NCBI GenBank assembly: GCA_902765005.1
Contig: CACWYB010000002.1
Coordinates: forward strand, 74,553 to 138,552
DNA from: an uncultured Eubacteriales bacterium
GTDB lineage: Bacteria; Bacillota; Clostridia; Christensenellales; CAG-138
DNA length: 64,000 nt
Direction: 5' to 3'
Shown here: piece after piece, positions 2,708 through 51,880 of the stretch
Layout of the letters: every line of letters starts with the position of its first letter
Numbering within the stretch: the stretch's first letter is position 1
Notes under the pieces: model-generated
Seen by the model: only the letters and a program-made list of their open reading frames with translations
Told to the model about the DNA's origin: nothing
Database searches by the model: none
Made by a program: the position numbers and the translations under genes

Positions 2708-2717
2708 GAATCAGCTG

Positions 2718-2741: not shown

Positions 2742-2752
2742 CGGAGGAAATC

Positions 2753-8687: not shown

Positions 8688-8715
8688 TTGCAATTTCGAA
8701 CACAGCTGATATAAT
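8688..8715 (+). promoter_or_regulatory. Sigma-A-type promoter for the tyrS leader
   Basis: TTGCAA (8688-8693), 16-nt spacer, extended -10 TGaTATAAT (8707-8715). Confidence 0.55.
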
Positions 8716-8721
8716 GGTGGC

Positions 8722-8968
8722 AATCGACAGCAAGGCTATGAAGGAAAGAGTAGGCGGCGCAAGGCCTCAAGAGAGCATCCGGCCGGTGAAAGGATGCGGC
8801 AAACGCCACTGAAGTACATTCCGGAGCCGCTTCCCTGAAACCGAGTAGGGGGAGACGGGAGCGCCCGTTACAGCGTCCAAGGAGAGGCGGTCCGCCCGCG
8901 GGGCGCGCCTGAATTGAGGTGGTACCACGGCAATTTCGTCGTCCTCTGTTCCCGAAGGGGAGCGGAGG
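8722..8968 (+). promoter_or_regulatory. T-box riboswitch leader, tyrosine-specific (UAC specifier)
   Basis: Stem I elements (AGAGAG, GTGAAAG). Specifier-loop context GAAGUACA with UAC at 8815-8817. T-box sequence tgaggtggtaccacgg at 8906-8921. Terminator cctctgttcccgaaggggagcggagg + TTTTTT at ~8933-8967. Confidence 0.85.
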
Positions 8969-8995
8969 GCTTTTTTATTACACAAACAGGAAAGG

Positions 8996-10231: not shown

Positions 10232-10289
10232 GAGGTAAACAGGGGAGGGGAAACTCTCCCCGAAAAGAACAGCAAGCGACAGGATCTAC

Positions 10290-11672: not shown

Positions 11673-11694
11673 TCCCAAGGCAAGGAGGAAGCCT

Positions 11695-17929: not shown

Positions 17930-17944
17930 GGGAGGGAGCAAGCT

Positions 17945-34300: not shown

Positions 34301-37300
34301 GTGGAAGACACTGAAAACGTGTTCACGCTGGACCTGGCAACCATTTTTGCCCCCGATGCGCTGGAAGGCATTACCATGGTCCGCTCGAGTGATGAAAACA
34401 TGCCTGTGGCGTATGATTCGACTACGCATGTCGTCACGTTTGCGAATGGGATCTATTACGGTCTGGAAATCATTTGCACCGCAAGTACCGGAATCGACGG
34501 CACGGAGATGGATGTGTACATCCCGGTATGTTACATGCCGCCCATCGATCAGGATCGGGCGTACTTTGATCTGCACTTTAATCAGATAGATGGCTGGTTG
34601 ACCAACGATGTGGAGTATGGTGTCACTGTGAAGATCTCCACGATTGAGGAGCTGCAGGCGATCTTTGTCAACAATCATGTGGACGTGAATCTAAACAGCT
34701 GCCCGTCAGAGGATGATCCATTTTTTAAGGAGGTCCTCCATCAGAAGGACCGGATCAGGTCCTTCGGCTTCTACTTCGACGGCGCGTTTACGCTGACGAT
34801 CGAGGAGGGAGACAACTTCGTCGGCTCATTCTACTTGAACAACGAAAACGCGGATATTACGATCATCAGAAACGCGCCTGTGATGGATGGAACGGACGAC
34901 AGCATCGAAGTGAACGCCGGCAGACTGGACTATACCGGTGACGTGTCCAGGCTGCTGCTCAGGGGCCGTTTGAATGGGAATGATACCGCGCAATCTTCCG
35001 TGACTATTCGCGGCAGCGTGCAGGATCTGATTTGGACCACCTTCGCTCAAGGGGAATATACTCCCTATTTGGGGGATGTGTTCGTTTCGGGAACGATTGC
35101 CAACGGCGAGCAGAACGGCAAAAACGAGGTTGACCTGGACAGCCTGAACATCGGCCAGAATCTGGGAAAGGTGGAGCTCAATCTGCCTGTCGTCAAGTTC
35201 AAAAAGGATGCGATCGACTCGGCACCCGTTCAGATCATAGATGACGGCGTGCTGCTGGAAGGAACCGGTCTTGCGGTGGAGGCTGTTTCCATAGGCAGGG
35301 AGGACATTTCACACATTAGCCTGTATTGCGCCATTGGATCTGATTCTCAAGCATGGCGGGTCAGCGTCCAGTTGGATCCGGAAAAGTATACTTCGGATGC
35401 CATGAAAGCGGAGCTGGAAGGCTTCACCATGGCTGATCTTTGGGGCAGCGCGCCGGACGAGGCGGACCATATCGACGTGGATTTGACGCTGAACGGAGAT
35501 AGCACGATCCCGACACAGCTTGAGATCAACGGAAATTATAGGACCGTGTATGTCAGTGGCGGCAACTATACCCTCCAATCCGGCAGCGTGTTTGGAAACA
35601 TGTATGTCAATACACCTGTTAGCCCCGGCCGGTTTGCGGGCTGGAAGGACACGGTCATATCGATCAACTGTCCGGTCAACCAGTTGATATTCTATGGCTT
35701 GTTGCGCAATACAACCGTTATCTTGGGTGAAAATGGCCATGTAAGCGAAGGCCAGAAGAATATTCTTGATCGGTTTACCCTTGGGAGCACGCCGGGCCGC
35801 TTCTTCTTCGATGTGCAGGCGAACACAACTCTGTTGGAGAATGGCGATCTGAAGGTCATGAGCAGCGACGCCAATGATCGAGATGCGCTGGGCGCTATCC
35901 TGACGGACAGCAAGACGTTGAATGCCAGCGTGGATGGCTTGAATGCCGACAGCGAAGCTGCCTTCATGTATATCAATCAGACCGGCAGCGAGGATCTGAC
36001 GGAGGAAGAGAAGGCCGCGCTGCGCTCGCAGGAAACCAATTTGAATATGCTGAGCGCCGCTTTCCAGGTGGATGTGGCGAAGGTGAGCTTCGATGAAAGA
36101 GGCAACGCAACGAATGCGGAGGACGTGTCCCAGCTGAATAATGAAGTGACATTCACCCTGGAGCTCCCCGACGATCAGGCGAGCTATGATGTGTTCCGGC
36201 TCCACGAAGAAAACGGGGAGGTATCCGCTACCAAGCTCATCTCCACGGAGGAGGGTGATGATACAGTCACCTTGAGCAGCGACCTGTTCTCCAAGTTTGT
36301 GATGGTGAACACCAGCCCGGTGGAACTGGATTTTGTGCATCCGGAAGAAAAGTATCACCACTTCGAGTATTCTGAGGGCGGATGGCTTGTAACGGCGGAT
36401 GGCACAAATGAGCGGCTTCCGGTTTCCGCAGCGGATGCAAAGAGGCTTCTGATCAATGATAACTGGTTCTATCTGTCCTTCTTTGAAATTCCGTCCGATG
36501 AGGAGCGTTTCTACAGTGAGTACACAAACCAGCTGCGATCAGTTGAGTTCGTGTGTGCCGGCGAGATGACCTTCGATATCAGTTCTGACGCGCAGAGGCT
36601 AAACAGTATAACGGTCAACCGTCCGGGCGCCAACATTACCGTCAACTATCCTGCAGAGGATCATCCGTATCTATACGTAAATGTCTACAGTGGTAGCTTG
36701 ACATTCACGGGTGACATTAACAGCCTGATGCTGAATGGAAACGACAATTCCAATGCCGATTCTGTAGTTCGAGTAAATGGCAACGTTCAAGAGCTTACCT
36801 GGTATGGGAAAACTGCGGAGGTGGATTCCTATAACAATGGCGATCCATATTTGGGCGACCTGTATGTAACCGGACGGATCGCCAATGGCGAAGAGAGGGG
36901 AAGACGTGAGGTTGACATCCAGAATATCGGCATTGTCACGGTCAATCTGACCGTATCTTCCTTCTCAAAAACTAAAGAGGATGCCTCTTTGGTGATCGAG
37001 GATGGCGAACTGAAGCTTGTTCCTGAGTATACAATTGGCAATCAATTGACAGGCGCAGATGTTTCCTTGCTGTACCAGGCGGAATATGGCGGGACGGAGT
37101 GGACCTTGTTTATCGGATCGCTTTCCGGCGGCGACATGGGCTCTTTCTACCTGGGAGACGAATTTGATGCCTCCAGGATTATGCCTGGGGAAAACGTTTC
37201 TGTCGTCATTTGGGATTCCCCTGCCGACGGGACCCCCATCAGGTTGACTGGCCCCTTTAATATGGTTGATATTTATGCCGGCCGTGTAATACTGGAGGAG

Positions 37301-40300
37301 TCTGTGGATTCGCTGAATATCAGCAACTTCTGGCTGGATCAACACGCTGTCCATCCCGTGATCGATGTGACCATTGACGGTCAGGTGGATTTTCTTTCCT
37401 TAGAAGGAGTAAACAAGGGAACGGCCGTAAAAACCGGCGCAAACGGCAACGTGAGCAGCGGCAATTGGCATTTCTATCTCAACGGATTGGGCCACCTGTC
37501 TTCTCCTCGATGGTTCGATCATTCTATCGGCGCGAACACGCAGATCATGTCCAACGGCAGCTTGCTGCTCATGAGTGTGGACAGAAATGGTGAATATGGT
37601 TCGATTGCATCTCGCGTGGATGAGCTGACCCAGGCGGCTGGCATTGAGGAGGGAAACCAATTCGCTGCCATGGACATTCGGAACGGGGATGTATATCTGG
37701 ATGAGACGGAGCAAGCGCTCGTCAATGAACAAGTGCCGGGGGGAAGAACGGTTACCGAATTCGATGTTCAGGTCACTGCGTATACCGTAGATGACGATGG
37801 AAACCTGACGAGCCAATCCAATGTCTCCAGCTTGACCAATGGCGAAGCCAGCTTTGCTCTGCAGCTGCCGAATGACGATCCGGAGGCAGAGTACAGGATT
37901 GTGCGGATTCACGATGGGGAGGCCCGGGAGGCCCAGATCATGGAAGATGCCGTGATCGAAAACGGCCTTGCCCAGGTGAGCAGCGACCTGTTCTCCAAGT
38001 TCGTGGTGGTGCAAGTGGGCGGGCACGCCTATGTGGCAGAAGTCAACGGCGTGAAATACGAATCCTTTGCCGAGGCGGCGGCCGCAGCGAATAACGGTGA
38101 ACACGTGATCACGCTGCTGGCGGACGTGGAGGAGCTGTACAAGCTGAGCATGGATAACCATACGGTGAAGATCCAGACAAATGGTCATTGGCTGCGGATT
38201 GAAACACCGAAGTGGGGGCGCTTAGATTCGTCTGAAAATGATGGCGTTACCTCCTATCAGCTTATCTACGGGGTTGCCGATCCCACCGAGGACTGGGCCG
38301 GGAGAATCTTTAAGCTTGCGCACTATAATGAAGGATGGTTCATTCAATCGAATGAGAATGAATACTTCCTTGTTACCGCCGAGCAGATGGAAACCATCAT
38401 CAACAGCGGGGTTCGCACGGGAGAGGTGGATGTGTTCGCGGCGCCCGAGGAGAACGATCCTATGTGGGAAATGTTTGGCAGGCATATGGGAACAGGACCC
38501 GATGACCCCAGCATGGTCGACGGCATTGATTTCTATTGTGCGGGAGATGTGACCCTTACCATTCCAGAGGGGGCCTATTACTTTGGCGGATTCACAATCG
38601 AAAACCCGGAAGCAAATATAACCATAAACAGGCACGATACGGGAGTAGCCAACATCTGGGTATACGCAGGCACCCTTACGTATACCGGCAGTGTGGAAGA
38701 CCTGAGACTGTTTGGAAGAGCGTATGATGATCACAGCAAAGATGTGGTCGTTACGGTGAATGGGCACATTCGTACGCTGAACTTTATGGGAGAGAATGCT
38801 CCGGCTAACGATGCGAATCAGGCTCCGTTTAAGGGCAACCTGTATGTGAACGGAACGATTGAGAATGGCTATGAAAAGGGCCAGCAAACCGTTGATTTGA
38901 CCGAGTATAAGATTGGCGTGGTTACCATCGCCATGGCCGTCAAGCAAGTGGAGAATCATACAACAGAAGGGAAAGAACACATTATTGAAAACGGCGTTCT
39001 GAAGGATGAGTATTGCTCAAAGATAATTGAGAATGTAACGAAAGACGACCTTCAGTATTATTTCAATGGGTATGCAGGGAGCAGTATATACCCGAATACC
39101 GATAGAGGAAACTGGACCGTGATTGTCCAGCATGTGGAGACACAGGCTATGTCAGATTCCATCCCGTTAGGGGAGGATTTCTCTGCGGTCGATGTGCAGC
39201 TTACGCCGAAGGAGTATATCTACAATGTGTCCCTGTATGGGAGCAGAGAAGGTGATAGCAGCCTGAATGCCCCCATTACACTTCCGGGAGATTTTAAGGA
39301 CGTTCAGATTCATGATGTGGATTTGATCGTTCCGGAAGGCACCAACTATGATTGGCTGGTGACGCATTCTGACTTTGTAACCGCCGATAGTGGGCTGCCG
39401 TATTCTACCGTGACCGTTTATGGAACGGTGCAAGATCTGAATATTGACGGGCCGTCAGATCATATCACCATTGAGACCAGCGGCAATGGGAAGATACTGA
39501 AAGGCACCTGGACCACCTATAACCTGGGCAATTACTATAACCGTAAGACGCGGTTCTTCACACCGGGTGCGGGCATATTGTTCACAAACGGTTTGTTGCA
39601 AGTATTGAGCTATGATAGCCCCGACATGTCCGATCTGGGCGCCATTATGCCCAGCAGCGCCACGCTGACGGCAGCCACAGAGAATGTGGCCCAGAATCAG
39701 GCGACCTATATGGATATCACCTCGAGCAGCGTAGAGGAGCTGTCCAGCCAGGAAATGACCGCTTTGGAAGGGCTGGGCATCGACCAGAATCAGTTGGCAG
39801 CCGGGTTCCAGGTGGAGGTGGCGAAGCTGACCTTTGAGGATGATGGAACCATCACCGGCGAGGAGATAACTGAGCTGACCAGCGAGGTGCCCATCACTCT
39901 GGAGCTGCCGGACGACGAGAACGAATACCAGATCATCCGCCTCCATGAAGGGGAAAGCGGCATGAGCGCGGATGCTCTCGGCGAGCCGACGACAGGGTCC
40001 GTGGTCACAGTGAGTAGCGACCTGTTCTCCAAGTTCGTGGTGGTCAACACGAAAGCCCCCAGCAGGGAGTACACGATCCGGTTTGTGGATGAAGACGGCA
40101 CGGAGCTGCAGAGCAGCAAAGTGGCTCAGGGTGAGCTGCCTGTGTACACGGGTGAAACACCGACTAAGGCGATGGATGAACAGTTCATCTATACCTTTGC
40201 CGGATGGACGCCGGAGATCGTGGCTGCCACAGAGGATGCAACGTATACGGCAACCTATAGCAGTGCACGGATAACTTGCACGGTGACATTCAATTCAAAT

Positions 40301-41353
40301 GGAGGAACGTCAGTTGAAGCTATAACACTGACAAAAGGGACTGCCGCAGCAGAACCTGCAGAACCGACAAGAGAAGGATATTATTTCGTTGGATGGTATG
40401 TTGAAGGCGAAGAGTCATCCTTTGATTTTGACACGATCATTGTGGAGGATTTGACTTTGACAGCGAAATGGGCAAGGGTTGCCAAGTACTCCGCCACCTT
40501 GACATTGAAAGACAATATCAATATCAACTTCTATGTCAAAGATATTGAGGAAGAGGATAAACAGTGGTATACGGTCAAATGGACCTTTGATGGAAAGGAG
40601 CTTGAGAAAGAGCTAAAGGGTGTTGATCGAGAAGAGGATGGACGATATAAGATCGTTCTTGCAGGAACATACTCCTACCAGATGACCTTGCCAGTGCATA
40701 TCATGGTTTACTGCAATGATGTGCTTGTAAAAGAGGTCGAATCCTATTCAGTACAAACGTATTTCTTGAATATGCTGAATAAGAGCTCAACGGATGCAAA
40801 GACAAAAGCACTTTGCAGAGCGGGGTTGGACTATGGTGCCAATGCGCAATTGTTCTTTGACGGAAAGACCTATGGGGGAGGAATCCCATACGCTTGTGAT
40901 GCGGGGAACCTTGCAAATCGTTCCACAAATCCGAGCAATACCATCACTGCAACGAAGCCAAGCAATGCTGCAAGCAGAGAAGGAGATTTGAACGGGACTG
41001 GAATCAGCAAACTTACGGCTTCTCTGATTCTGGGAACGGAAACCACAATCAAACTTTATATAACGTATGAAGGTGACATTGGTGATCTGACCATCACTTG
41101 TGCCGGAAGGAGCATTACACAGCCGGTGAAAGAAGCAGATGGAAGATACTCCGTTTCAATCCCCGGGATCCGGTCCTTTGAGCTTTGTAAGGATTATGTC
41201 ATTTCCATTGTCAAAGGGACACAAACAATTAAAGTTACCTATTCTGCATATGCGTACGCAGCAAAGAATTGGGATAGTTCAGATAGCAAATTGAAGAACC
41301 TGTGCAGAGCGCTGGTTGCATATGGAGATGTTGCAAAGGAAATATGGGGCTAA
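28400..41353 (+). CDS. Giant (4317 aa) secreted mosaic surface protein: acidic Glu/Pro/Thr/Ala repeats, BspA-type LRRs, Cys-rich motifs, internalin-type LRRs, Flg_new repeats and three large unknown modules
   Basis: Single uninterrupted ORF. Signal peptide [25 protein letters not shown]. See the domain sub-features. No LPXTG, SLH, choline-binding or C-terminal TM anchor is visible. Confidence 0.9.
   Translation: [4317 protein letters not shown]
29375..29776 (+). repeat. Tandem duplication of a 201-bp (67-aa) acidic coding unit
   Basis: gagcctgcggaggaaac(a/g)cccgc(c/a)gaagaccctgc... recurs at 29375 and 29576 with near identity ([12 protein letters not shown](V/A)EPEAT(Q/P)[24 protein letters not shown]...). 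Confidence 0.75.
30550..31880 (+). other. BspA-type leucine-rich repeat block (low-GC segment)
   Basis: About 15 repeats of the pattern IP.SVTSIG..AF..C..L.S. (e.g. [38 protein letters not shown]). A second short block lies at ~32740-33060. Confidence 0.75.
33611..33812 (+). other. Flg_new / Listeria-Bacteroides repeat
   Basis: [46 protein letters not shown]...DAVLHTNW. Confidence 0.65.
33975..34240 (+). other. Internalin-type 22-residue LRR block
   Basis: [79 protein letters not shown]. Confidence 0.75.
34540..40050 (+). repeat. Three divergent ~570-650-aa intragenic modules of unknown fold
   Basis: Shared landmarks in the same order. First, PYLGD(V/L)(F/Y)V(S/T)G(T/R)IANGE, with [15 protein letters not shown] in copy 3. 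Then (F/I)(T/A)L(E/Q)LP(D/N)D...(Y)..(F/I)R(L/I)H(E/D)... Each module ends in SSDLFSKFV(M/V)V, at nt ~36277, 37981 and 40015. Confidence 0.7.
40066..40472 (+). other. Two Flg_new / Listeria-Bacteroides repeats
   Basis: [50 protein letters not shown] and [45 protein letters not shown]...LTLTAKW. Confidence 0.75.
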
Positions 41354-41389
41354 TGAAAAGGTTTATTATATGAGAAAGGAGGAGAAAAA

Positions 41390-41488
41390 ATGAAAGAGTA
41401 TGAAGCGTTGGAGCTTGAAGTGATCAGATTTGATACTGAAGATGTGATCACCGCAAGTCAGGGCGAGACCCCGGAAGACGAACTGTAA
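41390..41488 (+). CDS. Unannotated 32-aa acidic peptide (candidate RiPP precursor): MKEYEALELEVIRFDTEDVITASQGETPEDEL
   Basis: Not in the ORF track because it is below the size cutoff. ATG at 41390 is preceded by agaaaGGAGGagaaaaa (GGAGG 7 nt upstream); TAA at 41486. Followed by a perfect hairpin and then by PqqD/kinase/peptidase/ABC genes. Confidence 0.55.
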   Translation: MKEYEALELEVIRFDTEDVITASQGETPEDEL

Positions 41489-41495
41489 TGGTTGA

Positions 41496-41526
41496 GTATG
41501 AGACGGGTCTTTGACCCGTCTCATAC
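41496..41526 (+). terminator. Perfect 14-bp stem-loop right after the peptide ORF (partial terminator / transcript-stabilising hairpin)
   Basis: gtatgagacgggtc-ttt-gacccgtctcatac. The downstream U-tract is weak (gtattg), so read-through into the operon is expected. Confidence 0.5.
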
Positions 41527-41580
41527 GTATTGAGAACTGAACAGCAGCGTTTCTGTTCTGAGGAAATTTGACGGAAAAGA

Positions 41581-42321
41581 ATGGAACATAACGGTATATA
41601 TCGTTTTGCAAATATATCGGTGCAGGTAGTCTCCTTGTTCCCTTACGCCCAGAAGATGTGTGAGGCCTATCGGTGCCAGGGAGCTCCTGAGCTGACGATT
41701 GCCACCACGCAAAAGGACATTGACTTTGAGCGGCGGAGGGCAAAGGAGGTCGCCAGGAAGGAAGGGCGGCCGGAGCCGGACCATGCCGATGGGTATTTGG
41801 AGACCCTGGCGGTCTATCGGAAGATCGCGGAGAAGATGCCTTTTTACGACAGGATGCTGATGCATGGCTCCTGCGTGGCGGTGGATGGGGCAGCGTATCT
41901 GTTCATCGCCAGGAGCGGCACGGGCAAGAGCACCCACACCCGGCTGTGGCGCAAGCTGCTGGGGGACAGGGCGGTGATGGTCAATGACGATAAGCCCCTG
42001 GTCCAGGTGGCGGAGGGAAAGGCCATCATCTATGGCACGCCCTGGGACGGAAAGCATCGGCTGAGCAGCAACGTGGCTGTGCCGCTGCAAGCCGCCTGCA
42101 TCCTGGAGCGGGCAGAGGAAAACAGCATTCGCCCGCTGATCCGGGAGGAAGCGCTGCCCATGCTGCTGCAGCAAAGCTATCGACCCTTCGACCCGGAGGC
42201 TCTCGCGAAGACGGTGGCGCTGGTGGACCGGTTGGCCGGGGCGGTGAGGCTCTATCGGCTGGGCTGCAATATGAATATAGGGGCGGCTGAGCTGTCGTAT
42301 ACCACAATGAAGGAAGGATAG
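41581..42321 (+). CDS. HPr-kinase/phosphorylase C-terminal-domain-like protein (RiPP-associated kinase type)
   Basis: 246 aa. MLMHGSCVAVDGAAYLFIARSGTGKSTHTRLW...VMVNDD mirrors the HprK core (HG..V...G.G.L..G.SG.GKS......L......L..DD). Confidence 0.75.
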   Translation: MEHNGIYRFANISVQVVSLFPYAQKMCEAYRCQGAPELTIATTQKDIDFERRRAKEVARKEGRPEPDHADGYLETLAVYRKIAEKMPFYDRMLMHGSCVAVDGAAYLFIARSGTGKSTHTRLWRKLLGDRAVMVNDDKPLVQVAEGKAIIYGTPWDGKHRLSSNVAVPLQAACILERAEENSIRPLIREEALPMLLQQSYRPFDPEALAKTVALVDRLAGAVRLYRLGCNMNIGAAELSYTTMKEG

Positions 42322-42325
42322 AACC

Positions 42326-42586
42326 ATGAAACTGAAGAAAGAGTTTATCACCCATATCACCGGGGAGGAGGCGCTGCTGGTGCCCACCGGCGCGGCGAGC
42401 TTTTCCGGCCTGGTGAAGGGAAACAAGACCCTGGGCGCCATCCTGGAGCTGCTGAAAACGGAAACAACGGAGCAGCAGATCGTGTCCGCCATGTGTGCTC
42501 GGTTCAACGGAGCTGAGGAGACGATTGCCAAGGATGTGAAACGGGCGCTTGCGGAGCTGCGCAAAATCGGGGCGCTGGATGAGTAA
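42326..42586 (+). CDS. PqqD-family protein (RiPP recognition element, lasso B1-like)
   Basis: 86 aa. ...EEALLVPTGAASFSGLVKGNKTLGAILELLKTETTEQQIVSAMCARFNGAEETIAKDVKRALAELRKIGALDE fits the PqqD winged-helix pattern. Confidence 0.8.
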   Translation: MKLKKEFITHITGEEALLVPTGAASFSGLVKGNKTLGAILELLKTETTEQQIVSAMCARFNGAEETIAKDVKRALAELRKIGALDE

Positions 42587-43031
42587 GGGTCTCTCTTACG
42601 AAGAATATCTGGAACAAAACGAAACGCTCACCTACACGAATGTGGGTGTGAGCATGCTGCCGCTGCTTCGGCAGGGGAAGGATTTGTTCACCGTTCGAAG
42701 AAAGGGCGAGGAACGGTGCCGGGCGGGAGATGTGGTCCTGTATCGGCGGCCGCCGGATCAGTATGTGCTGCATCGGGTCATCGAGGTGAAGCCGGATGGA
42801 TATGTGATCCTGGGAGACAACTGCGTAGCCAGGGAATACGGCATTCGGGACGCCGATATCCTGGGGGTCATGACGGGCTTTGTGCGGGACGGCAAAGCGC
42901 ACAGCGTATGCGAAGCTGGTTACAGACTATATACTTTTTTATGGCTTCACACCATTGGACCGCGGGTGTTTGCAAAACGAGCAAGGTTGAAATTGGCCAG
43001 GCTATGGCATCGGATCAGACATGAAGGATAG
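42579..43031 (+). CDS. S24/S26-family peptidase, ER/SipW-type (Ser-His) signal-peptidase-like
   Basis: I take the start as the ATG at 42579 (8-nt overlap with the PqqD gene). Ser box GVSMLPLL, GDVVLYRR, a His box YVLHRVIEV where bacterial SPase I has K-R, and ILGDNC. Confidence 0.7.
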   Translation: MSKGLSYEEYLEQNETLTYTNVGVSMLPLLRQGKDLFTVRRKGEERCRAGDVVLYRRPPDQYVLHRVIEVKPDGYVILGDNCVAREYGIRDADILGVMTGFVRDGKAHSVCEAGYRLYTFLWLHTIGPRVFAKRARLKLARLWHRIRHEG

Positions 43032-44730
43032 CGCGGTAAAGTGGCTGTATGCCGTGCCGGGCGGAAAGCGGCTGTATATCGTTTTGTTGGCGGCGGCCCA
43101 GGCGATCCACGGCGCCTCAGGGGTGCTGTATGCCCTGCTGCTGCGAAACATTGTGGATGCGGCTTCCGCAAAAAACGGCCCCGCATTCTGGCAGGGGATG
43201 GCGCTCATCGTCCTGCTGGTGGCCGGGCAGCTGGGGCTCCGGACACTGATTCGATTCTTGACGGAGCTTTCCAAAGCCACATTGGAGAACAGGTTTAAGG
43301 CGCGGTTGCTGGATGTACTGCTGAAGAAGGAGTACATGCGCATCAGCGCTCTGCATTCGGCGGAGTGGATGAATCGGCTGACCAACGACACGGTGGTGGT
43401 GGCCAACGGCTATGTGGACATACTGCCGGGGTTGGTGGGCATGGTCGTGAAGCTGATCAGCGCCCTGGTGATGATCGTGGTCATGGAGCCGCGCTTTGCC
43501 GCGGTCATGATCCCCTGCGGGCTGCTGCTGGTGTTCTTTACCTGGCTGTTTCGCAAGACGCTCAAGCGCCTGCATCGAAACATACAGGAAGCGGACGGTC
43601 GGGTGAGGATCTTTTTGCAGGAGCGGATCGGCAGTCTGCTGATGATCCATTCCTTTGGGGCGGAACAGCAAAGCATGGCAGAGGCAGAGGAGAAGCTGAA
43701 GGAGCATAAGGCGGCTCGCATGCGCCGAAACTGGTTTTCCAACCTGTGCAACGTTGGCTTTGGCGCCGCCATGAACGGCATGTATTTATTGGGTGTGGGC
43801 TGGTGCGGATATGGCATACTGACGGGAACCATCACCTTCGGCACCCTGACTGCCATCACGCAGCTCATTTCGCAGATTCAGGCGCCGTTTGCGAACATCT
43901 CCGGGTATTTGCCTCGCTATTACGCCATGCTTGCCAGCGCCGAGCGGCTGATGGAGGCGGAGCACTTCCCCGAGGGGCCGCAGGAGGCCCTGTGTCTGCC
44001 TGCGGTGGCTGAGTTTTATGAAAAGAAACTGGCCGCCTTTGGGCTGAAGGACGCAAGCTTCATCTACTATCCCGCTACAGAGCGCGTGGACGCCCTCATA
44101 AAGGAGAGCATGCCCGTTGTGCTTTCAAACCTTTCGCTGGAGATCCGCAAGGGAGAATATGTGGCGTTCACGGGCCAAAGCGGCTGCGGCAAGTCCACGG
44201 TACTGAAGCTGCTGATGTGCGTGTACGCCCCTGATACGGGGACGCGGTATTACAAGGATCAGGACGGCAGCCGGGGAGAGCTCTCCTCGGCCTATCGGTG
44301 TCTGTTTGCCTATGTACCCCAGGGAAATCAGCTGATGAGCGGTACCATCCGGCAGGTGGTAAGCTTTGCCGATCCGCAGGCCGCAGCGGATGAAGAAAAA
44401 CTATGGCTGGCGCTGAAGATTGCCTGCGCGGATGATTTTGTGCGGGAGCTGGAGCAGGGGCTGGACACCCTTCTGGGCGAGAGAGGGACGGGCTTATCCG
44501 AGGGCCAGATGCAGCGGCTGGCGATTGCCCGGGCCATTTTCTCCGAAAGCCCTATCCTGCTGCTGGATGAAGCCACCAGCGCCCTGGATGAGGAGACGGA
44601 GAAGCGGTTGCTGAGCCACCTGCGCCGGTTGACCGACCGGACGGTGATCACGGTGACCCATCGGCCGGCGGTGCTGTCGATCTGCGACAGGGTGCTGCAG
44701 TTTACGGAAAGCGGGGTGAAGGAAGCATGA
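43021..44730 (+). CDS. ABC exporter, fused transmembrane + ATP-binding domains (type I exporter half-transporter)
   Basis: 569 aa. Six-TM N-terminal domain, Walker A GQSGCGKST, signature LSEGQMQRLAIARA, Walker B ILLLDEATSALD. Overlaps the peptidase gene by 11 nt. Confidence 0.9.
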   Translation: MKDSAVKWLYAVPGGKRLYIVLLAAAQAIHGASGVLYALLLRNIVDAASAKNGPAFWQGMALIVLLVAGQLGLRTLIRFLTELSKATLENRFKARLLDVLLKKEYMRISALHSAEWMNRLTNDTVVVANGYVDILPGLVGMVVKLISALVMIVVMEPRFAAVMIPCGLLLVFFTWLFRKTLKRLHRNIQEADGRVRIFLQERIGSLLMIHSFGAEQQSMAEAEEKLKEHKAARMRRNWFSNLCNVGFGAAMNGMYLLGVGWCGYGILTGTITFGTLTAITQLISQIQAPFANISGYLPRYYAMLASAERLMEAEHFPEGPQEALCLPAVAEFYEKKLAAFGLKDASFIYYPATERVDALIKESMPVVLSNLSLEIRKGEYVAFTGQSGCGKSTVLKLLMCVYAPDTGTRYYKDQDGSRGELSSAYRCLFAYVPQGNQLMSGTIRQVVSFADPQAAADEEKLWLALKIACADDFVRELEQGLDTLLGERGTGLSEGQMQRLAIARAIFSESPILLLDEATSALDEETEKRLLSHLRRLTDRTVITVTHRPAVLSICDRVLQFTESGVKEA

Positions 44731-45833
44731 CACAGGAGGAAAGCTGGAAAGCCATTCAGGACGTGGCCTACCTTGCCGCCTGCGTGGTGAATGGGACAGC
44801 GCCGGATACGCAGCGGGTCAAAGATATGGATCTAAAGCAGCTCTATCCGGTGGCGAAGAGGCATCTGCTCTCTTCCATCACTGCCTTTGGGCTGGAAGCA
44901 GCAGGCAAACAGGACGCCAGATTTTCCCAAGCGAAGGCTAAGGCAATCCGCAAGGTGGCACTGCTGGATGCGGAGATGGCCAATCTTTTTGAAAAGCTGG
45001 ACGAGGCTGGCATCTGGCATATGCCTCTGAAGGGGACCGTGCTGCAGCAATACTATCCCAAATACGGCATGCGGGAGATGTCGGACCACGATATTCTGTT
45101 CGACGCGACCCGGGCGGCGGACGTGAAAGCCATTATGGAAGACCTGGGGTTTTCCACGGAGAGCTATAACAAAGGGAACCACGACATCTACCACAAGGAA
45201 CCGGTGGTGAACTTTGAAATGCACAGGGAGCTGTTTGGCGCCGGCTCGAAAAAGCAGCTGCGCGACTATTATCACAACGTGGAGGAGCGTTTGGTCAAAG
45301 GAGCGGACTTTGCGCGAAGGTTCACCCCGGAGGACTTTTATATCTACATGATTGCCCACGAGTACAAGCACTTTGCCGGCGGCGGCACAGGGCTCCGCTC
45401 CCTTCTGGACACCTATGTGCTTGAGAGGAAGCTGGGCAGCTCGCTGAACAGAGACTACATCCGCCGGGAGCTGGACAAGCTGGGGCTCACAGAGTTTGAG
45501 GCGAAAAACCGTGCCCTTTCCCTGCATCTGTTTGGCGGGGTTCCTCTTACGGAGGAGGAACAGGGCATGCTGTCATATGTTCTTTCCTCCGGGGCCTACG
45601 GGACCATGCATAACCATGTGGAAAACGAGATCACGGAAAAAGGGCGCTTCGGATACTTTCTCTCCCGCCTGACCCTCCCCAAGGAGATGATGGAGCAGCA
45701 GTTTCCCGTGCTGAAAAAGGCGCCCGCGCTGTATCCTTTCTTTTGGGTGTTCCGTTTGCTGCGGGGCTTTTTCGCCAATCACAAGGTGTTCATGTATCAG
45801 CTGAAAGCTGTGATCAGGCGAAAGAAACAATAA
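44727..45833 (+). CDS. Uncharacterised nucleotidyltransferase-family protein (NTP_transf_5-like)
   Basis: 368 aa, with an ATGA overlap onto the ABC gene. WHMPLKGTVLQQYYPKYGMREMSDHDILFD matches the (KG....YP....R...D.D.L) core I associate with this family. Confidence 0.65.
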   Translation: MTQEESWKAIQDVAYLAACVVNGTAPDTQRVKDMDLKQLYPVAKRHLLSSITAFGLEAAGKQDARFSQAKAKAIRKVALLDAEMANLFEKLDEAGIWHMPLKGTVLQQYYPKYGMREMSDHDILFDATRAADVKAIMEDLGFSTESYNKGNHDIYHKEPVVNFEMHRELFGAGSKKQLRDYYHNVEERLVKGADFARRFTPEDFYIYMIAHEYKHFAGGGTGLRSLLDTYVLERKLGSSLNRDYIRRELDKLGLTEFEAKNRALSLHLFGGVPLTEEEQGMLSYVLSSGAYGTMHNHVENEITEKGRFGYFLSRLTLPKEMMEQQFPVLKKAPALYPFFWVFRLLRGFFANHKVFMYQLKAVIRRKKQ

Positions 45834-45834: not shown

Positions 45835-45860
45835 AGGCATTCCCTCGAAGGAGAATGCCT
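45835..45860 (-). terminator. Hairpin terminator between convergent genes (U-tract on the minus strand)
   Basis: aggcattccc-tcgaa-ggagaatgcct. On the minus strand it is followed by TTTTA. Confidence 0.5.
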
Positions 45861-45878: not shown

Positions 45879-46919
45879 TCACACGCCCAGATAGCCCTTG
45901 AGGACCAGGAGGGTGTTTTTGACGCCCTCTTTGTGGCTGCGTTCGTAGCCGTGGGAGGCGTAGACGCCGGCGCCGATGAGACCGTGGCGGATGTCGTAGC
46001 CGGCCCGGAGGGTGGCCTCCACGTCGGACCCGTAGTGGGGGTACACGTCCACGGCGTAGTCCGCGCCCTCGGCCTTGGCTGCGGCGATGAGCTTCTTCAC
46101 CACGTCGTAGGAGTAGGGGCCGCCGCTGTCCTTGGCGCAGATGGACACCTGCTTCTCCGTGCAGGTGAGGCCCGTGCCCACGCAGCCCATGTCCACGGAG
46201 ATAGCTTCCGTAACGCCGGCGGGCACGGAGGCGGCGCCGCCATGACCCACCTCCTCATAGACGGTGATGTGGGCGTACACCCGGCGCTTGGGGGTGATGC
46301 CCTCGTCGTGAAGGTATTTGGCCAGGCCCAGCAGGATGCCCACGCTGAGCTTGTCGTCCAGGAAGCGGCTCTTGATGTAGCCCTTCTCCGTGACGCGGGA
46401 GCGGGGGTCGAAGCAGACCACGTCCCCGGCGGAAATGCCCAGCTTCTGGGTGTCCTCGACGGTCTTCACATCCTCATCCAGGACCACCTCCATGCAGGAG
46501 AACTTGCGCAGGGTGTCGGAATAGTCCCCGTTCACGTGGATGGAGGCGTTGTCCAGCTGGAGGGTGCCCTCGTAGATGCCGTCGAACTTGGTGACCACCC
46601 GGCAGTTCTCCGCCTCCGCGTTGTTGGCGTTCAGGCCCCCCAGGGGGGAGATGCGCAGCCGCCCGTTGCTCTTGATTTCAGAGACCATGCCGCCCAGGGT
46701 GTCCAGGTGTGCTTCCAGCCAGAGGGCGTCGCTTTCGTCCGCACCGCCCAGGTCCGCGATGACGCCGCCCTTGCCCGTGAGCCGGGCTTCAAAGCCCAGG
46801 GCCCTGAACTCCTTCAAACAGGCTTCCGCCGCCTGCTGGGTATAGCCGGATGGGCTGTCGATGCTGAGGAGCGAAAGGGTCTTTTCCACCGCAAAATCCA
46901 CATATTTCTGATCGATCAT
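45879..46919 (-). CDS. M42-family metallopeptidase (glutamyl aminopeptidase/FrvX-like)
   Basis: 346 aa. SIDSPSGYT, AHLDTLG, YEEVGHGGA. Confidence 0.85.
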   Translation of the reverse strand: MIDQKYVDFAVEKTLSLLSIDSPSGYTQQAAEACLKEFRALGFEARLTGKGGVIADLGGADESDALWLEAHLDTLGGMVSEIKSNGRLRISPLGGLNANNAEAENCRVVTKFDGIYEGTLQLDNASIHVNGDYSDTLRKFSCMEVVLDEDVKTVEDTQKLGISAGDVVCFDPRSRVTEKGYIKSRFLDDKLSVGILLGLAKYLHDEGITPKRRVYAHITVYEEVGHGGAASVPAGVTEAISVDMGCVGTGLTCTEKQVSICAKDSGGPYSYDVVKKLIAAAKAEGADYAVDVYPHYGSDVEATLRAGYDIRHGLIGAGVYASHGYERSHKEGVKNTLLVLKGYLGV

Positions 46920-47888: not shown

Positions 47889-48995
47889 TCAGCGGAGCAG
47901 GAGAAGCTTGGCGTCCGTGGTCAGGGTTTTGAGGGAGCAGACGCAGGCCATCTCCTCAATGCTTTCCTGTTCGATGAGTTCATGGACGTCCCCCCGGAAA
48001 AAGCGGGGATCGATCATGAGGATGGTCCTGTAGTGGGGCAGCAGCAGGGGGACGAGGGCATTGGCGAAGGAGTCCTTGATGAGCAGGAGGGAGCCCTCCC
48101 CTCCGGAATGGTTGGTCAGCTTCACCCGGCCGAAGTTGCCGCCGAAGAACAGGTCGTAGGGGTCGTAGGAGGTCAGGGCCTCCCTGTGGTATAGATCCTG
48201 CGCGGGGGCTCCCCCGTCGATCTCCACCTCGTAATCGCAAGGGGGGAGGGGGTAGAGGATGGGCTCATGGGGGGTGAGCCACAGGGCGCTGCGGGAGAGG
48301 GTGGAGCCGTGGAAATCATCGTAGGTCTCGTAGCGGATCTCTTCCGGCGCCGCGGGGGCAAGGCCCTTTGCCTGCAGGAAGGCGGCGTAGGCGGCGTAGG
48401 CCCCGTCGGCGTTCCAGTGGTTGTCCGTGCGGTAGAACCGGGCCCCCTGGCCCTCCGTGAGCGCAGGGATCAGGTCCACGGGCCGCAGATGGGCGCAGGC
48501 GTCCGCCTGCCGGAGCAGTTCGTCGTCCGCATACAGGGGGGCGAGGTATCCGGGCAGATTCTCCCGGGCGGCGTAGCCGGCGCTGGGGGGCACCAGCAGG
48601 AACAGGCCCTTCCCCTCCCGGGCGGCCAGCTCATCCAGGTGGCGCAGGTTTTTCGCTAGGGAGGCCAGATTTTCCTGCGTAGCCGGCACGGGGCTTTCCA
48701 CCAGCTGGCCGGCGCGGGTCACATAGATGTCGCTGAACCGCTCCGTGCCCGCCAAGAGACGCATATAGGCGCTGATCCCCGTGAGGGCGTCCCGAAGGAC
48801 CAGGTGGTCGGACAGATATTCCTCCATGTCGTCGTCCCAGGTCCAGTGCGCCAGGGACAGGCTCTGGGCCTTGGGGAAGGCGCGCAGCACCCGCCGCTCC
48901 GCAGGGGAGAAGGTAGCCCCCAGGTTCAGGCACGTGCCCAGGAACCCGGCGGCCAGGAGGAAGAAGAATGCTATTGTCAGCAGGTGTTTTCGCAT
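47889..48995 (-). CDS. DHHW-family protein (AlgJ/AlgX-like partner of MBOAT acyltransferases)
   Basis: I take the start as the ATG at 48995, 4 nt after the MBOAT stop; the track ORF is over-extended to 49286. N-terminal TM helix. Motif FYRTDNHWNADGAY (DNHW variant of DHHW). Confidence 0.75.
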   Translation of the reverse strand: MRKHLLTIAFFFLLAAGFLGTCLNLGATFSPAERRVLRAFPKAQSLSLAHWTWDDDMEEYLSDHLVLRDALTGISAYMRLLAGTERFSDIYVTRAGQLVESPVPATQENLASLAKNLRHLDELAAREGKGLFLLVPPSAGYAARENLPGYLAPLYADDELLRQADACAHLRPVDLIPALTEGQGARFYRTDNHWNADGAYAAYAAFLQAKGLAPAAPEEIRYETYDDFHGSTLSRSALWLTPHEPILYPLPPCDYEVEIDGGAPAQDLYHREALTSYDPYDLFFGGNFGRVKLTNHSGGEGSLLLIKDSFANALVPLLLPHYRTILMIDPRFFRGDVHELIEQESIEEMACVCSLKTLTTDAKLLLLR

Positions 48996-48999
48996 GGCT

Positions 49000-50400
49000 T
49001 CAGAAGCGGAAGTAGATGAAGGGGTTGTAGCTCTGCCCCGCCAGGGAGGCGACGCAGAGGAGGAACAGCACCAGCAGCAGGGCGATCTTGCCGCCCTCCG
49101 CCAGGCGGGGGCGCTTTTTTGCGACGCGGGCCCAGGCCTTTCGGGGCAGATACCCCATACATAAGAGGCCCAGCAGCACCCACGCCCAGTAGCTGCCCAG
49201 AACGGAGCGGGCATCGGCGCTGAGAAGAGGGCCGCCGAAGCGGAAGAGACCGGCGAAGTAGGCGCACATCTGCCCCAGATCCTCAAAGTAGAAGACCATG
49301 AAGGACAGGGTCACCAGGAGAAACATATACCCATGGCGCAAAAAGCCGGGCAGCCGTTTCAACAGATCCCCCAGCACATACCGCTCCAGCACCAGCAGCA
49401 CCCAAAAATACAGGCCCCACAGCAGGTAGTTGAAGCTGGCCCCATGCCACAGGCCCGTGAGGGACCAGACGATGAGCATGTTGAGGATGGTCCGCCAGGT
49501 GCCCTTCCGGTTGCCCCCCAGTGGGATGTACACGTACTCCCTGAAGAAGCGGGAGAGGGTCATGTGCCAGCGGCGCCAGAACTCCGTGACGGAGGCGGCG
49601 GTGTAGGGATGGTCGAAATTCAGGGGGAAGGAGAAGCCCATCATCCGGCCCAGGCCGATGGCCATGTCGGAGTAGCCGGAGAAGTCGAAATAGATCTGCA
49701 AACAGTAGCAAAGGGCCCCGAACCAGCAGCCCAAAAGGCCGTTTTCCCCGGGGCGGAGGGAAAGATACCGCCAGGCCTCCCCCAGCACGTTGGCCAGCAG
49801 CACCTTCTTGGACAGGCCCAGGATGAACCGCTGGATGCCCCGGGAGACCTCCCCCTGATCGATGGTCATGGTCCGGTGAGCAAGGCCGTCGATCTGGGTT
49901 TCTATATCGGCGTAGCGCACGATGGGCCCGGCGATGAGCTGCGGAAACATGGTGATGTAGGTGCCGAAGATCACCGGGTCCCGCTGCACCTTGGTGTCCC
50001 CCCGGTAGGCGTCGATCACATAGGACATGGCCTGGAAGGTGAAGAAGGAGATGCCCAGGGGCAGGGAGCCGGGGTAGAAGCTGAGCTTGGGCAGGCGGAG
50101 AAAATCCACCATGAAGGGGGTGAAATACTTATAGAAGAACAGGGAGAGCACGTCAAAGGCCACCGCCAAGGTGAGGAGCGTGGACCGATGGCGGGGGGAT
50201 TTGTCCATGAGCAGGGCCATGGCGTAGTTCACCAGGATCACCGCCAACATGAGGGGCAGATACTTCACCTCGCCCCAGCTGTAGAACAGGAGGCTGAACA
50301 GAAACAACAGCCAGACCCGTCCCTTTCCCCGCAGCAGATAGTACAGCAGAAAGAAGACGGGCAGAAAAAAGAAGATGAAGCTGATGGAAGAGAACGCCAT
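49000..50400 (-). CDS. MBOAT-family O-acyltransferase (AlgI/DltB-like)
   Basis: 466 aa, polytopic. FWRRWHMTLSRFFREYVYIPLGGNRKG with the conserved His. Confidence 0.9.
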   Translation of the reverse strand: MAFSSISFIFFFLPVFFLLYYLLRGKGRVWLLFLFSLLFYSWGEVKYLPLMLAVILVNYAMALLMDKSPRHRSTLLTLAVAFDVLSLFFYKYFTPFMVDFLRLPKLSFYPGSLPLGISFFTFQAMSYVIDAYRGDTKVQRDPVIFGTYITMFPQLIAGPIVRYADIETQIDGLAHRTMTIDQGEVSRGIQRFILGLSKKVLLANVLGEAWRYLSLRPGENGLLGCWFGALCYCLQIYFDFSGYSDMAIGLGRMMGFSFPLNFDHPYTAASVTEFWRRWHMTLSRFFREYVYIPLGGNRKGTWRTILNMLIVWSLTGLWHGASFNYLLWGLYFWVLLVLERYVLGDLLKRLPGFLRHGYMFLLVTLSFMVFYFEDLGQMCAYFAGLFRFGGPLLSADARSVLGSYWAWVLLGLLCMGYLPRKAWARVAKKRPRLAEGGKIALLLVLFLLCVASLAGQSYNPFIYFRF

Positions 50401-50418
50401 GCCGCCGGGAAAGGGGCC

Positions 50419-50892
50419 TTATTTTGCCCCGTCCGAAAAGACGGCGTAGAGGGCGTCGGCGTCGTTGGAGACGATCAACAGAACGTATGCGCCCCGGCGC
50501 TCCAGGCGGGCGGCGGCGATCTTCTCATACTCCTCGGGCATGTAGTCCCGGTAGGTCTCCCCCTGGCGGGCGAGCTCCTCGGACAAAAGCTGCTCCACCG
50601 TGGCGGCGTAGGCCTCCTCCTTGGTTTCCACCAGCAGGAATTCCTCCGCCAGCAGGCCGTCCGCCGTTACGTAGTTCACCAGCTGGACGCATTTATCGGG
50701 CTCGATGCCGTAGTAGTCGGAAACCATCTGCTCGTCCCGGCGGATCATCTCCGGAAACAGGTTCAAGGCGGCCATCTTTTCATAGAGCTCCTCGCCGTTC
50801 ACCGGCGCGGCCGCCTCCTTCTTCCCGCACCCCGTAAGGGCGCTCACCAAAAGGACCACCGCCAGGGCGATCGCCATCATCCTTTTGCTCAT
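50419..50892 (-). CDS. DUF4358-like lipoprotein
   Basis: I take the start as the ATG at 50892 (RBS GGAGGA). Lipobox LTGCG. The family call is from memory of the YYGI...LLVE...A pattern. Confidence 0.6.
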   Translation of the reverse strand: MSKRMMAIALAVVLLVSALTGCGKKEAAAPVNGEELYEKMAALNLFPEMIRRDEQMVSDYYGIEPDKCVQLVNYVTADGLLAEEFLLVETKEEAYAATVEQLLSEELARQGETYRDYMPEEYEKIAAARLERRGAYVLLIVSNDADALYAVFSDGAK

Positions 50893-50893
50893 T

Positions 50894-51880
50894 TCAGTTT
50901 TCCTCCAAGCTCCATTTGCCGGCATAATAGGCGTCCCGCGCGTATTCCCGCAGGCAGCGGACCCAGATGCGCTTGCCCTCCTTGCCCAGGTGGAAGCGGT
51001 AGTCCGAGGCGCTGTACTCATACTTCAAAAAACCGTCCTCATCCCGCACCAGGTCCGCCAGCTCGATGTAGGTGATGCCCTTTTCGGCGCAATAGGCCCG
51101 CATGTGCTCGTTGACGGTCTTGTTGATCTCGTAGGTCATGTTCACCTGACCGGCGTAGTCCTTCACCATGGGCATGATGGAATGGATGATGATCTCCAGA
51201 TCCGGGTGCTGGGCCTTGATGAGGGTGATGAGCTGATCGTAGGTGTCCACCATCTCCTCCGGGGTGAACCAGCGGGGGTCGCTGACGCCCAGCATGATGA
51301 AGAGGCGCTTGGCCTCCAGGGTGGTCACCACCTCGGAGATGGTCATATAGCGGCCCTTGCACTTGAGCTCGGAGCCGCGGGCCTTCTGCTCGCATTCCAG
51401 AGCCTTTTTGAGGGTCAGGGCGCTGGCGGGCACCAGCTGCAGATCCCCCAGGCAGGTCCGGCCCTCGTTCCGCTCCTGGAGCACGTAGCCGGACAGGCCC
51501 CCCACCAGGGAGTCGCCCACCAGCACGGCGTCGTCAAACCAGCCGTCCAGATACCCGGCATCCAGCATCTCGTCGGTGACGGGCGCTTCGGTGGGCTGGG
51601 GGACGGCGGCTTCGGTAGGCTCGGCTTCGGCGGCTTCAGCGGGTTCGGGGGTGGGCGCCGGGACAGGCTCCTCCGTGGGGTCGGCCTCGGGAGTATGCTC
51701 AGCCTCCACCTCCACGGAGATGGGTTCCCGGGTGGCGGGCACCTGGGTGGGCGTCGGGGTGGGGGTCGCTTCGGCTTGGGCTTCCGCGGCGGCGGGCCGG
51801 TCAGGTTCGTTCGTGTTCCGGCTGCAGGCTACGCACAGCAGCGCACATAGGATCAATAACGCACAGTATATCTTTTTCAT
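50894..51880 (-). CDS. SGNH/GDSL-like hydrolase lipoprotein
   Basis: 328 aa. Lipobox LLCVACS, a Pro/Glu/Ala/Thr linker, block I VLVGDSLVGG, and a C-terminal D..H-like region (DGFLKYEYSASDYRFH). Confidence 0.7.
   Translation of the reverse strand: MKKIYCALLILCALLCVACSRNTNEPDRPAAAEAQAEATPTPTPTQVPATREPISVEVEAEHTPEADPTEEPVPAPTPEPAEAAEAEPTEAAVPQPTEAPVTDEMLDAGYLDGWFDDAVLVGDSLVGGLSGYVLQERNEGRTCLGDLQLVPASALTLKKALECEQKARGSELKCKGRYMTISEVVTTLEAKRLFIMLGVSDPRWFTPEEMVDTYDQLITLIKAQHPDLEIIIHSIMPMVKDYAGQVNMTYEINKTVNEHMRAYCAEKGITYIELADLVRDEDGFLKYEYSASDYRFHLGKEGKRIWVRCLREYARDAYYAGKWSLEEN

Follow-up and report, generated by a model that had tools for sequence, protein, structure and literature searches.

Linear polyphosphorylated peptides (LPPs) were defined in 2026 from about 126 loci, mostly of Bacilli, that carry lppA-K-B-S-D-N gene clusters (Popov et al., Nat Commun 2026;17:6633; PMC13381572). 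The core genes encode, in this order, a precursor (LppA), an HprK kinase (LppK), a recognition element (RRE; LppB) for peptides made on ribosomes and modified post-translationally (RiPPs), a signal peptidase I (SpI)-like peptidase (LppS), an exporter (LppD) and an NTP-transferase (LppN), and the pathway works without a lasso cyclase (C) or B2 protein (PMC13381572). Here, an operon of six genes was analyzed in a 64,000-nucleotide stretch of DNA, referred to as the window, from an uncultured Eubacteriales bacterium of the class Clostridia (assembly GCA_902765005.1, contig CACWYB010000002.1, positions 74,553 to 138,552). Comparison with the described systems indicates, with a probability of roughly 80%, that this operon is an LPP-type RiPP gene cluster (lppA-K-B-S-D-N) of a divergent Clostridial branch.

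The activities of the LPP proteins are known from expression of lppA-K-B-S-D-N of Paenibacillus alginolyticus DSM5050 in B. subtilis (PMC13381572). LppK adds one to four phosphates to Ser3 of the core, adjacent to the leader/core junction, and the S3A substitution abolishes this modification. LppS cuts after T(-1), precursor without phosphate being a poor substrate; it requires the RRE protein LppB, is inactive as the S29A, H68A or D93A variant, and F(-3), E(-2) and T(-1) of the leader are important to the cleavage. In crystal structures of LppB, the leader residue Y(-16) is held via D70 and P(-13) is sandwiched. Deletion of LppN produced no detectable change in the heterologous system, and the final LPP natural product was not found (PMC13381572). 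The main text of that study maps genomes of Bacilli and makes no mention of Clostridia, Ruminococcus or Lachnospiraceae. The LPP clusters of Bacilli often lie in capsule loci, and of the published set of SpI-type peptidases, only about a third have a link to lasso genes (PMC13381572).

Gene order and protein families of the operon

The operon comprises the following elements, in which the genes are open reading frames (ORFs) with product lengths in amino acids (aa).

41377-41382, + strand: Shine-Dalgarno sequence AGGAGG, 7 nt before the precursor ATG (read in the sequence)
41390-41488, + strand: lppA-like precursor gene, 32 aa, MKEYEALELEVIRFDTEDVITASQGETPEDEL (ORF)
41496-41526, + strand: perfect 14-bp hairpin without a T-tract, directly 3' of the precursor stop (RNA fold)
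41581-42321, + strand: lppK-like kinase gene, 246 aa (ORF)
42326-42586, + strand: lppB-like gene for a discrete RRE of the PqqD family, 86 aa (ORF)
42579-43031, + strand: lppS-like leader peptidase gene, 150 aa from the ATG (ORF)
43021-44730, + strand: lppD-like gene for an MsbA-type ATP-binding cassette (ABC) exporter, 569 aa (ORF)
44727-45833, + strand: lppN-like gene for a protein of the NTP_transf_5 nucleotidyltransferase (NTase) fold, 368 aa (ORF)
45835-45860, no strand assigned: GC-rich hairpin just past the lppN-like gene, with the genes on its two sides converging (called as terminator-like on the - strand)

All six ORFs were intact and full length compared with their homologues, and the last four genes overlap at their start/stop junctions by 8, 11 and 4 nt. 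A first-pass annotation, made from the letters of this DNA alone, had described six same-strand genes with these overlaps and a mini-ORF preceded by a Shine-Dalgarno sequence, all of which were confirmed at the same coordinates. For the peptidase gene, an alternative upstream TTG at 42549 is given in the ORF listing; homologues begin at the ATG at 42579.

For comparison, LppS, LppB and LppA reference sequences were taken from Supplementary Data 1 of the LPP study (PMC13381572), and a Paenibacillus LPP locus (L086) was located by way of a database protein with 97% identity to LppS. L086 encodes a 72-aa precursor, a PF27840:ScmC kinase, a PqqD protein, a 151-aa peptidase without a Pfam match, an ABC exporter and an NTP_transf_5 protein, followed downstream by a paeninodin-type lasso cluster (Asn_synthase, PF07475 kinase, PqqD, Transglut_core3 and NTP_transf_5). 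The five enzymes of the window were colinear with lppK-B-S-D-N and belonged to the same families as those of L086. Moreover, the best NCBIfam models of LppK and LppS, namely ScmC and sigpep_I_arch, were also those of the window kinase and peptidase. Since architecture and families were identical, the locus was filed as a member of the LPP group. The first-pass annotation had taken the system to be undescribed, a view superseded by the publication of LPP clusters with an identical gene order (PMC13381572).

The kinase matched Hpr_kinase_C in the local Pfam copy at an E-value of only 0.031. Precomputed protein-database annotation assigned it to PF27840 'ScmC', a newer Pfam family, and its best NCBIfam model was ScmC (TIGR04249; E 2.8e-5, 23.6 bits vs a cutoff of 125). 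The Walker A motif SGTGKST (residues 112-118) was invariant across 31 homologues, and an AlphaFold2 (AF2) model with a mean predicted local distance difference test (pLDDT) score of 94.9 matched ATP-dependent phosphoenolpyruvate (PEP) carboxykinase and HprK/P structures in Foldseek. PEP carboxykinases and HprK/P share one kinase fold. In BLASTP, the kinase was 30% identical to the LppK orthologue of L086 (E 2e-15), whereas the adjacent lasso kinase was matched at 2e-7; the LppK orthologue likewise belongs to PF27840:ScmC and the lasso kinase to PF07475. These comparisons place the kinase with LppK and not with the lasso kinases.

An ScmC-like kinase paired with a PqqD protein is also found in the SynChlorMet (SCM) cassette, which consists of ScmC (TIGR04249), ScmD (TIGR04248) and the radical S-adenosylmethionine (SAM) proteins ScmE and ScmF. 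Identity with this cassette was rejected on the ScmC score (23.6 vs 125 bits) and on the lack of a radical SAM gene in the window operon. A literature search on ScmC and SynChlorMet returned only unrelated acronyms.

The peptidase had no Pfam match, and its matches to sigpep_I_arch (TIGR02228; E 6e-9, 36 bits vs a cutoff of 51.85) and to the SipW and nickel superoxide dismutase (Ni-SOD) maturation protease models all remained under cutoff. Alignment of homologues revealed three invariant elements, a Ser box GxSMxP (S25), a His box HR (H65) and G79-D80. It was 27% identical to LppS (E 1e-9), and S25 and H65 aligned with S29 and H68 of LppS; we propose S25 and H65, with E86, as the catalytic residues. 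The match to LppS was preceded by those to a Ruminococcus sequence of cluster 9 (2e-20) and to cluster 4 (1e-12) of the published sequence similarity network (SSN). The AF2 model (pLDDT 90.5) has a soluble beta-core, a helix at the N-terminus and amphipathic helices at the C-terminus; no membrane anchor is predicted. Its Foldseek matches were S. aureus SpsB, human SEC11A, UmuD' and LexA. The fold searches support an S24/S26 peptidase fold for the predicted peptidase model and an HprK/PEP carboxykinase fold for that of the kinase.

Ser box, His box, GD box and predicted fold are also common to the archaeal/ER-type signal peptidases I (SipW, Sec11/SEC11A; MEROPS S26B). However, the window peptidase has 150 aa, no predicted anchor and scores under all signal peptidase model cutoffs, and by homology with LppS it would act on a RiPP leader presented by the RRE, not on secretory signal peptides. 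Membership among the housekeeping signal peptidases I, to which it is homologous, was rejected on the sub-cutoff scores and the missing anchor in the model.

The RRE protein matched Pfam PqqD above the Pfam cutoff (E 2.9e-10), and in a MAFFT alignment the window protein and its clade conserve D70 of LppB, an Asp that forms a hydrogen bond to the Tyr of the leader. The exporter matched ABC_membrane (6e-28) and ABC_tran (6e-26) in Pfam, carried no N-terminal C39 peptidase domain and was 29% identical to LppD of L086 (E 1e-52). The nucleotidyltransferase belonged to NTP_transf_5 (PF14907; E 3.6e-41) and was 27% identical to LppN of L086 (E 2e-7 vs 3e-5 for the NTase of the lasso cluster). By BLASTP, kinase and NTase are thus both closer to the LPP proteins than to their lasso-cluster paralogues. 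The motif-level assignments of the first-pass annotation held for all five enzymes, through Pfam for PqqD, ABC and NTP_transf_5 and through invariant motifs with AF2/Foldseek folds for kinase and peptidase. As a profile search, its proposed check succeeded for the former three, but gave only the 0.031 match to Hpr_kinase_C for the kinase and nothing in Pfam for the peptidase.

The hairpin behind the precursor gene (-25.5 kcal/mol, z = -5.5, with 0 of 200 shuffles equally stable) was not called by the terminator scan. Lying between the precursor gene and those of the enzymes, it probably stabilises or attenuates the transcript, and its placement would suit differing transcript stability of the two. 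The hairpin at 45835-45860 likely marks the end of the operon, after which an M42 peptidase gene follows on the - strand (45879-46919).

Precursor peptide and proposed maturation

A profile hidden Markov model (HMM) of the precursor was built iteratively from the mini-ORFs near homologous operons. It recognized 53 peptides spread over 37 of 85 loci and had a single match in the window, the ORF at 41390-41488 (E 3.6e-16). The Clostridial consensus reads M-x-K-Y-E-x-P/L-E-M/L-E-I/V-I/V-x-F-E/D-x-E-D-V-I-T-T/A-S and is followed by a variable tail. In MAFFT, these precursors aligned with the Bacilli pattern YxxPxVLxHQxIxFETxxS over a single 3-residue gap, the Clostridial leader being 3 aa shorter, and F-E-T fell on F-[ED]-[T/A/S/V]. 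In the window precursor, Y4-x-x-L7 is the equivalent of YxxP and is followed by L9, and I12-x-F14-D15-T16 is the equivalent of IxFET. Next come the conserved box E17-D-V-I-T-A-S23 and the acidic tail QGETPEDEL.

Past the conserved Ser, the tails of the Clostridial precursors had a median length of 12 aa and contained 13% D, 12% E, 18% G and 2% K+R. An exhaustive search of 1.8 billion sequences with the 32-aa precursor gave only 13 representatives at E <= 1e-3; such a short query has little statistical power. Among the nearest relatives, a loose C-terminal pattern T/x-P-E-x-x-E/D-L/F was seen (QGETPEDEL, YPEDPEL, TPEIDF; 41462-41485 in the window), and the tail may thus not be wholly free to vary in this sub-branch. 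A text search of the literature for the EDVITTS peptide motif and its variants returned nothing relevant. In one related locus (L045, 2284-3223), six tandem precursor genes with a shared conserved leader and differing short acidic tails stand directly upstream of one kinase-RRE-peptidase-NTase operon, forming a natural library of cores.

By homology with the LPP proteins, the following pathway is proposed. The PqqD-type RRE would bind the 32-aa precursor via its N-terminal motif Y4-E-A-L7-E-L9, and the HprK-like kinase would add at least one phosphate to a Ser or Thr of the EDVITAS box. S23 is taken as the most likely acceptor, both clades having a Ser as their last conserved residue. The signal-peptidase-like Ser25/His65 enzyme, with Glu86 at the position of D93, would then remove the leader from the RRE-bound precursor. 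A cut after F14-D15-T16 is favoured because these residues align with the cleavage determinants F(-3)-E(-2)-T(-1) of LppA; it would leave the 16-mer EDVITASQGETPEDEL, whose predicted net side-chain charge is -6 prior to phosphorylation. The NTP_transf_5 enzyme may extend or further decorate the phosphate, its lasso-cluster homologue PsmN having been linked to glycosylation in pseudomycoidin. Finally, the linear and highly acidic product would leave the cell through the MsbA-like ABC transporter. It is only for the Paenibacillus homologue that polyphosphorylation of a single Ser, peptidase cleavage in dependence on the RRE and dispensability of a cyclase were established (PMC13381572). By analogy, these experiments back the earlier proposal of a stand-alone, leader-dependent pathway to a linear tailored peptide, in which a signal-peptidase-like enzyme occupies the protease slot.

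The window and the Bacilli LPP clusters are alike in their six genes, gene order, Pfam families, an alignable leader, peptidase Ser and His and Tyr-binding Asp of the RRE. Nevertheless, several differences weigh against the assignment. Protein identity is low, at 27-30%. The Pro of YxxP, which is important for LppB binding, is replaced by Leu in the window precursor. Ser3, which is phosphorylated in LppA, falls on V19 in the alignment and has no counterpart Ser, so the acceptor cannot be the aligned residue; it follows that the acceptor, and perhaps the cut site as well, would not be those of LppA. In the peptidase, the position of LppS D93 is occupied by E86, a conserved Glu in its clade. BLASTP gave no alignment between the window RRE and LppB, for which reason the two were compared by MAFFT. 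In that alignment, the window RRE resembled the 'RRE others' of SSN clusters 4 and 9, and the RREs of these Clostridial SpI homologues are indeed tabulated as 'RRE others' and not as 'LPP RRE' (PMC13381572). As further differences, the leader is shortened and carries an added EDVITxS box, and the predicted core of the window precursor is 9-16 aa and strongly acidic vs 20-45+ aa and rich in G/N/P/K/H in Bacilli. The host, by analogy with relatives, would be a high-GC gut or rumen Clostridium, unlike the Bacilli hosts of LPPs. In sequence terms, the low identity, the 'RRE others'-like RRE, the shorter leader, the extra box and the short acidic cores mark the window branch as a divergent LPP subfamily.

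Distribution and variation of the operon

Homologs of the kinase and peptidase were widespread. Among clusters at 90% identity, more than 7,400 relatives of the kinase were found at E <= 1e-3, mostly in gut and rumen metagenomes, together with 1,788 relatives of the peptidase. Kinase relatives occurred in at least 570 stretches of species-representative genomes, and the neighbourhood survey covered the best 80 of these at least 570 species-level loci, 43 of which had adequate flanks. The 80 loci came from Ruminococcus, Oscillospiraceae, Lachnospiraceae and other Clostridia, with a few from Atopobiaceae, one from Kandleria vitulina and one from a contig of a metagenome-assembled genome (MAG) labelled Bacteroidales. 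The following counts were obtained near the kinase gene.

PqqD: 63/80 loci; 36/43 with adequate flanks
Peptidase: 54/80 loci; 29/43 with adequate flanks
Orthologous exporter: 34/80 loci; 22/43 with adequate flanks
NTase: 31/80 loci; 17/43 with adequate flanks
All five enzymes: 15/80 loci, 13 of them in K-B-S-D-N order; 10/43 with adequate flanks
Recognisable precursor: 32/80 loci; 15/43 with adequate flanks

From these counts, kinase, RRE and peptidase form the core, with exporter and NTase frequent but dispensable. The expectation of a conserved mini-ORF beside the homologous operons was borne out at 32 of the 80 loci, while no recognisable precursor was found at the other 48; their precursors are probably encoded elsewhere or too divergent. 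At 12 complete loci without a precursor HMM match, no obvious precursor gene was present directly upstream of the kinase gene.

Tailoring genes varied among the related loci. In 11 of the 80 (L006 at 8431-11428, L030, L036, L037, L047, L048, L049, L052, L061, L069 and L071), the kinase/RRE/peptidase operon contained the gene of a radical SAM RiPP maturase of the SPASM type, whose best matches were to other RiPP maturase families and not to ScmE/F. Cys was present in the precursor tails of 10 of these 11 loci, vs 3 of the 21 precursor-bearing loci without the enzyme, which suggests a hybrid subfamily of phospho- plus thioether-type peptides. Such a SPASM-containing subfamily is not mentioned in the main text of the LPP study (PMC13381572). 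In four further cases, a SAM-dependent methyltransferase gene was found after the RRE gene (L002 at 10993-11788, L017 at 10140-10823, L039 at 2300-3001 and L073 at 11420-12088). At L002 it follows the RRE gene directly, no peptidase homologue was detected and the NTase gene is reduced to a 42-aa fragment. The methyltransferase loci therefore indicate that tailoring genes are exchanged around a constant core of kinase and RRE.

Kinase homologues with 51-60% identity to the window protein were also found outside Clostridia, namely at four loci of Atopobiaceae/Coriobacteriaceae MAGs (L011, L014, L032 and L069), in Kandleria vitulina DSM 20405 (L084) and on the contig labelled Bacteroidales (L085), which could be a binning error. 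The presence of the kinase in Actinomycetota of the same gut and rumen habitats points to horizontal spread.

Alternative explanations and genomic surroundings

The same genes could serve a different end chemistry, which we consider unlikely. Here, phosphorylation by the kinase would yield only an activating intermediate, from which the pathway would proceed, for example, to dehydroalanine by elimination or, through the NTase, to a phospho-glycosyl or nucleotidyl transfer. The mature, functional peptide would then include the EDVITxS box. The different offset of the likely acceptor Ser and the extra conserved box, which is absent from Bacilli LPPs, would fit such an outcome. So would the retention of the NTase in 31 of the 80 loci, the SPASM radical SAM and methyltransferase genes swapped in elsewhere, the link of the pseudomycoidin NTase to glycosylation, and the final LPP product having escaped detection even in Bacilli (PMC13381572). 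Nevertheless, the operon contains no lyase or glycosyltransferase gene, and the phosphates added by the closest characterized kinases, LppK and those of paeninodin, are stable.

The composition of the region raises the question of whether the cluster is active in its host. GC content at third codon positions (GC3) was 0.85-0.95 in flanking host genes, 0.63-0.77 in the cluster and 0.60 in a giant gene upstream. Owing to this low GC3, the stretch at 28.0-45.9 kb looks like an acquired island; no convincing direct or inverted repeats were found at its borders. Two features of these surroundings are listed here.

28400-41353, + strand: gene for a 4,317-aa secreted surface protein (LRR_5 BspA-type and Flg_new repeats, acidic Pro/Glu-rich N-terminus)
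47889-51880, - strand: DHHW/AlgX-like, MBOAT and GDSL-lipase genes, 2 kb downstream of the operon, a module for the O-acylation of a cell-envelope polymer

An intact cluster on a horizontally acquired island could be a silent passenger, neither expressed nor functional. The low GC3 of the cluster and its upstream gene accords with that, as does the promoter search, in which one weak promoter-like site was the only result at the cluster. However, the genes carry no frameshifts, translational coupling is kept, the Shine-Dalgarno sequence is strong and near-identical copies occur in several metagenome samples, and we regard a silent cluster as very improbable.

Decay of a lasso cluster was also weighed, the operon then being what is left, without a product, of the accessory genes of a paeninodin-type cluster after loss of cyclase and B2. 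The window does share with paeninodin and pseudomycoidin lasso clusters an HprK-like kinase for a precursor Ser, a PqqD RRE (B1), NTP_transf_5 and an ABC exporter, all typical Firmicute lasso accessory parts, and about one third of the Bacilli loci adjoin lasso genes. In contrast to those lasso clusters, the window has neither C nor B2, its kinase belongs to PF27840 and not PF07475, its leader would be removed by a serine peptidase, and the leader is of the Y-type vs the W-type of paeninodins. With Paenibacillus queries, tblastn matched neither C nor B2, whether in the window or across the 85 loci. Asn_synthase and Transglut_core3 were likewise absent from Pfam scans of 20 further window genes (ten long ones for Asn_synthase), and clustering of neighbour genes across the loci gave no recurrent Asn_synthase or transglutaminase family. 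The first-pass annotation was thus correct that both are missing from the 64 kb. By contrast, its statement that the accessory genes always accompany them was overturned, lasso linkage being found for only about one third of the published set and at 0/80 Clostridial loci. The survey that it had suggested for such decay returned no lasso pair at the 80 loci. As no C or B2 was found in the window or the 85 loci, decay was rejected. Furthermore, all six ORFs are full length, the set with its dedicated signal-peptidase-like protease recurs in many species, kinase and NTase are nearer to LPP than to lasso paralogues, and LPP biosynthesis runs without C or B2. A survey of rumen lasso peptides (PMC7533575) was discarded as a precedent; it covers true lasso clusters of Butyrivibrio and Lachnospira, not the system in the window.

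Finally, it is hardly credible that kinase, NTase and exporter act on a cell-envelope glycopolymer beside a chance mini-ORF, as the giant LRR protein upstream, the MBOAT/DHHW/GDSL genes downstream and the capsule loci of Bacilli LPPs might invite one to think, given that the mini-ORF belongs to a peptide family conserved at 32 of the 80 loci in up to six tandem copies and follows a strong Shine-Dalgarno sequence, that a PqqD RRE with a leader peptidase fits only a peptide substrate, and that the Bacilli homologue modifies its peptide.

Other genes near the operon were as follows. The giant LRR_5 gene ends 36 nt short of the precursor gene, and LRR_5 proteins were also seen near the homologous cluster in five other loci; surface protein and cluster may be co-acquired or functionally linked. 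Downstream on the - strand, the M42 peptidase gene is followed by a DUF3737 gene and then by the DHHW/AlgX, MBOAT and GDSL genes, whose arrangement is reminiscent of the capsule and cell-surface neighbourhoods of Bacilli LPPs. A separate operon at 13783-19195 (+ strand), unrelated to the LPP-type cluster, encodes, besides an ABC ATPase, three proteins of 484 aa (no Pfam match), 681 aa (Flg_new repeat, lipoyl-like motif) and 416 aa.

Read as an LPP-type cluster, the locus extends the six-gene pathway to a much larger branch in anaerobic Clostridia of gut and rumen. LPP recognition proteins have been proposed to have evolved to escape cross-talk with lasso pathways (PMC13381572). As no lasso clusters lie near the Clostridial branch, this idea would not apply there. 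Tentatively, and on balance doubtfully, the branch, which is plentiful in Oscillospiraceae, Ruminococcus and Lachnospiraceae of rumen and gut, might form a distinct RiPP subfamily with mature peptides of ~10-25 aa that are extremely acidic, keep the EDVITxS head and are phosphorylated at a residue differing from that of Bacilli LPPs. The NTP_transf_5 enzyme would decorate them further, a task that SPASM radical SAM enzymes or methyltransferases would take on in sister loci. If so, neither the chemistry nor the cell-surface or community role of these peptides would be predictable from the Paenibacillus system. The very small acidic precursors should ease the tracking of products by mass spectrometry, and since tailoring enzymes (NTase, SPASM radical SAM and methyltransferase) are naturally exchanged in this family, comparison of such loci provides a route to the role of each step.

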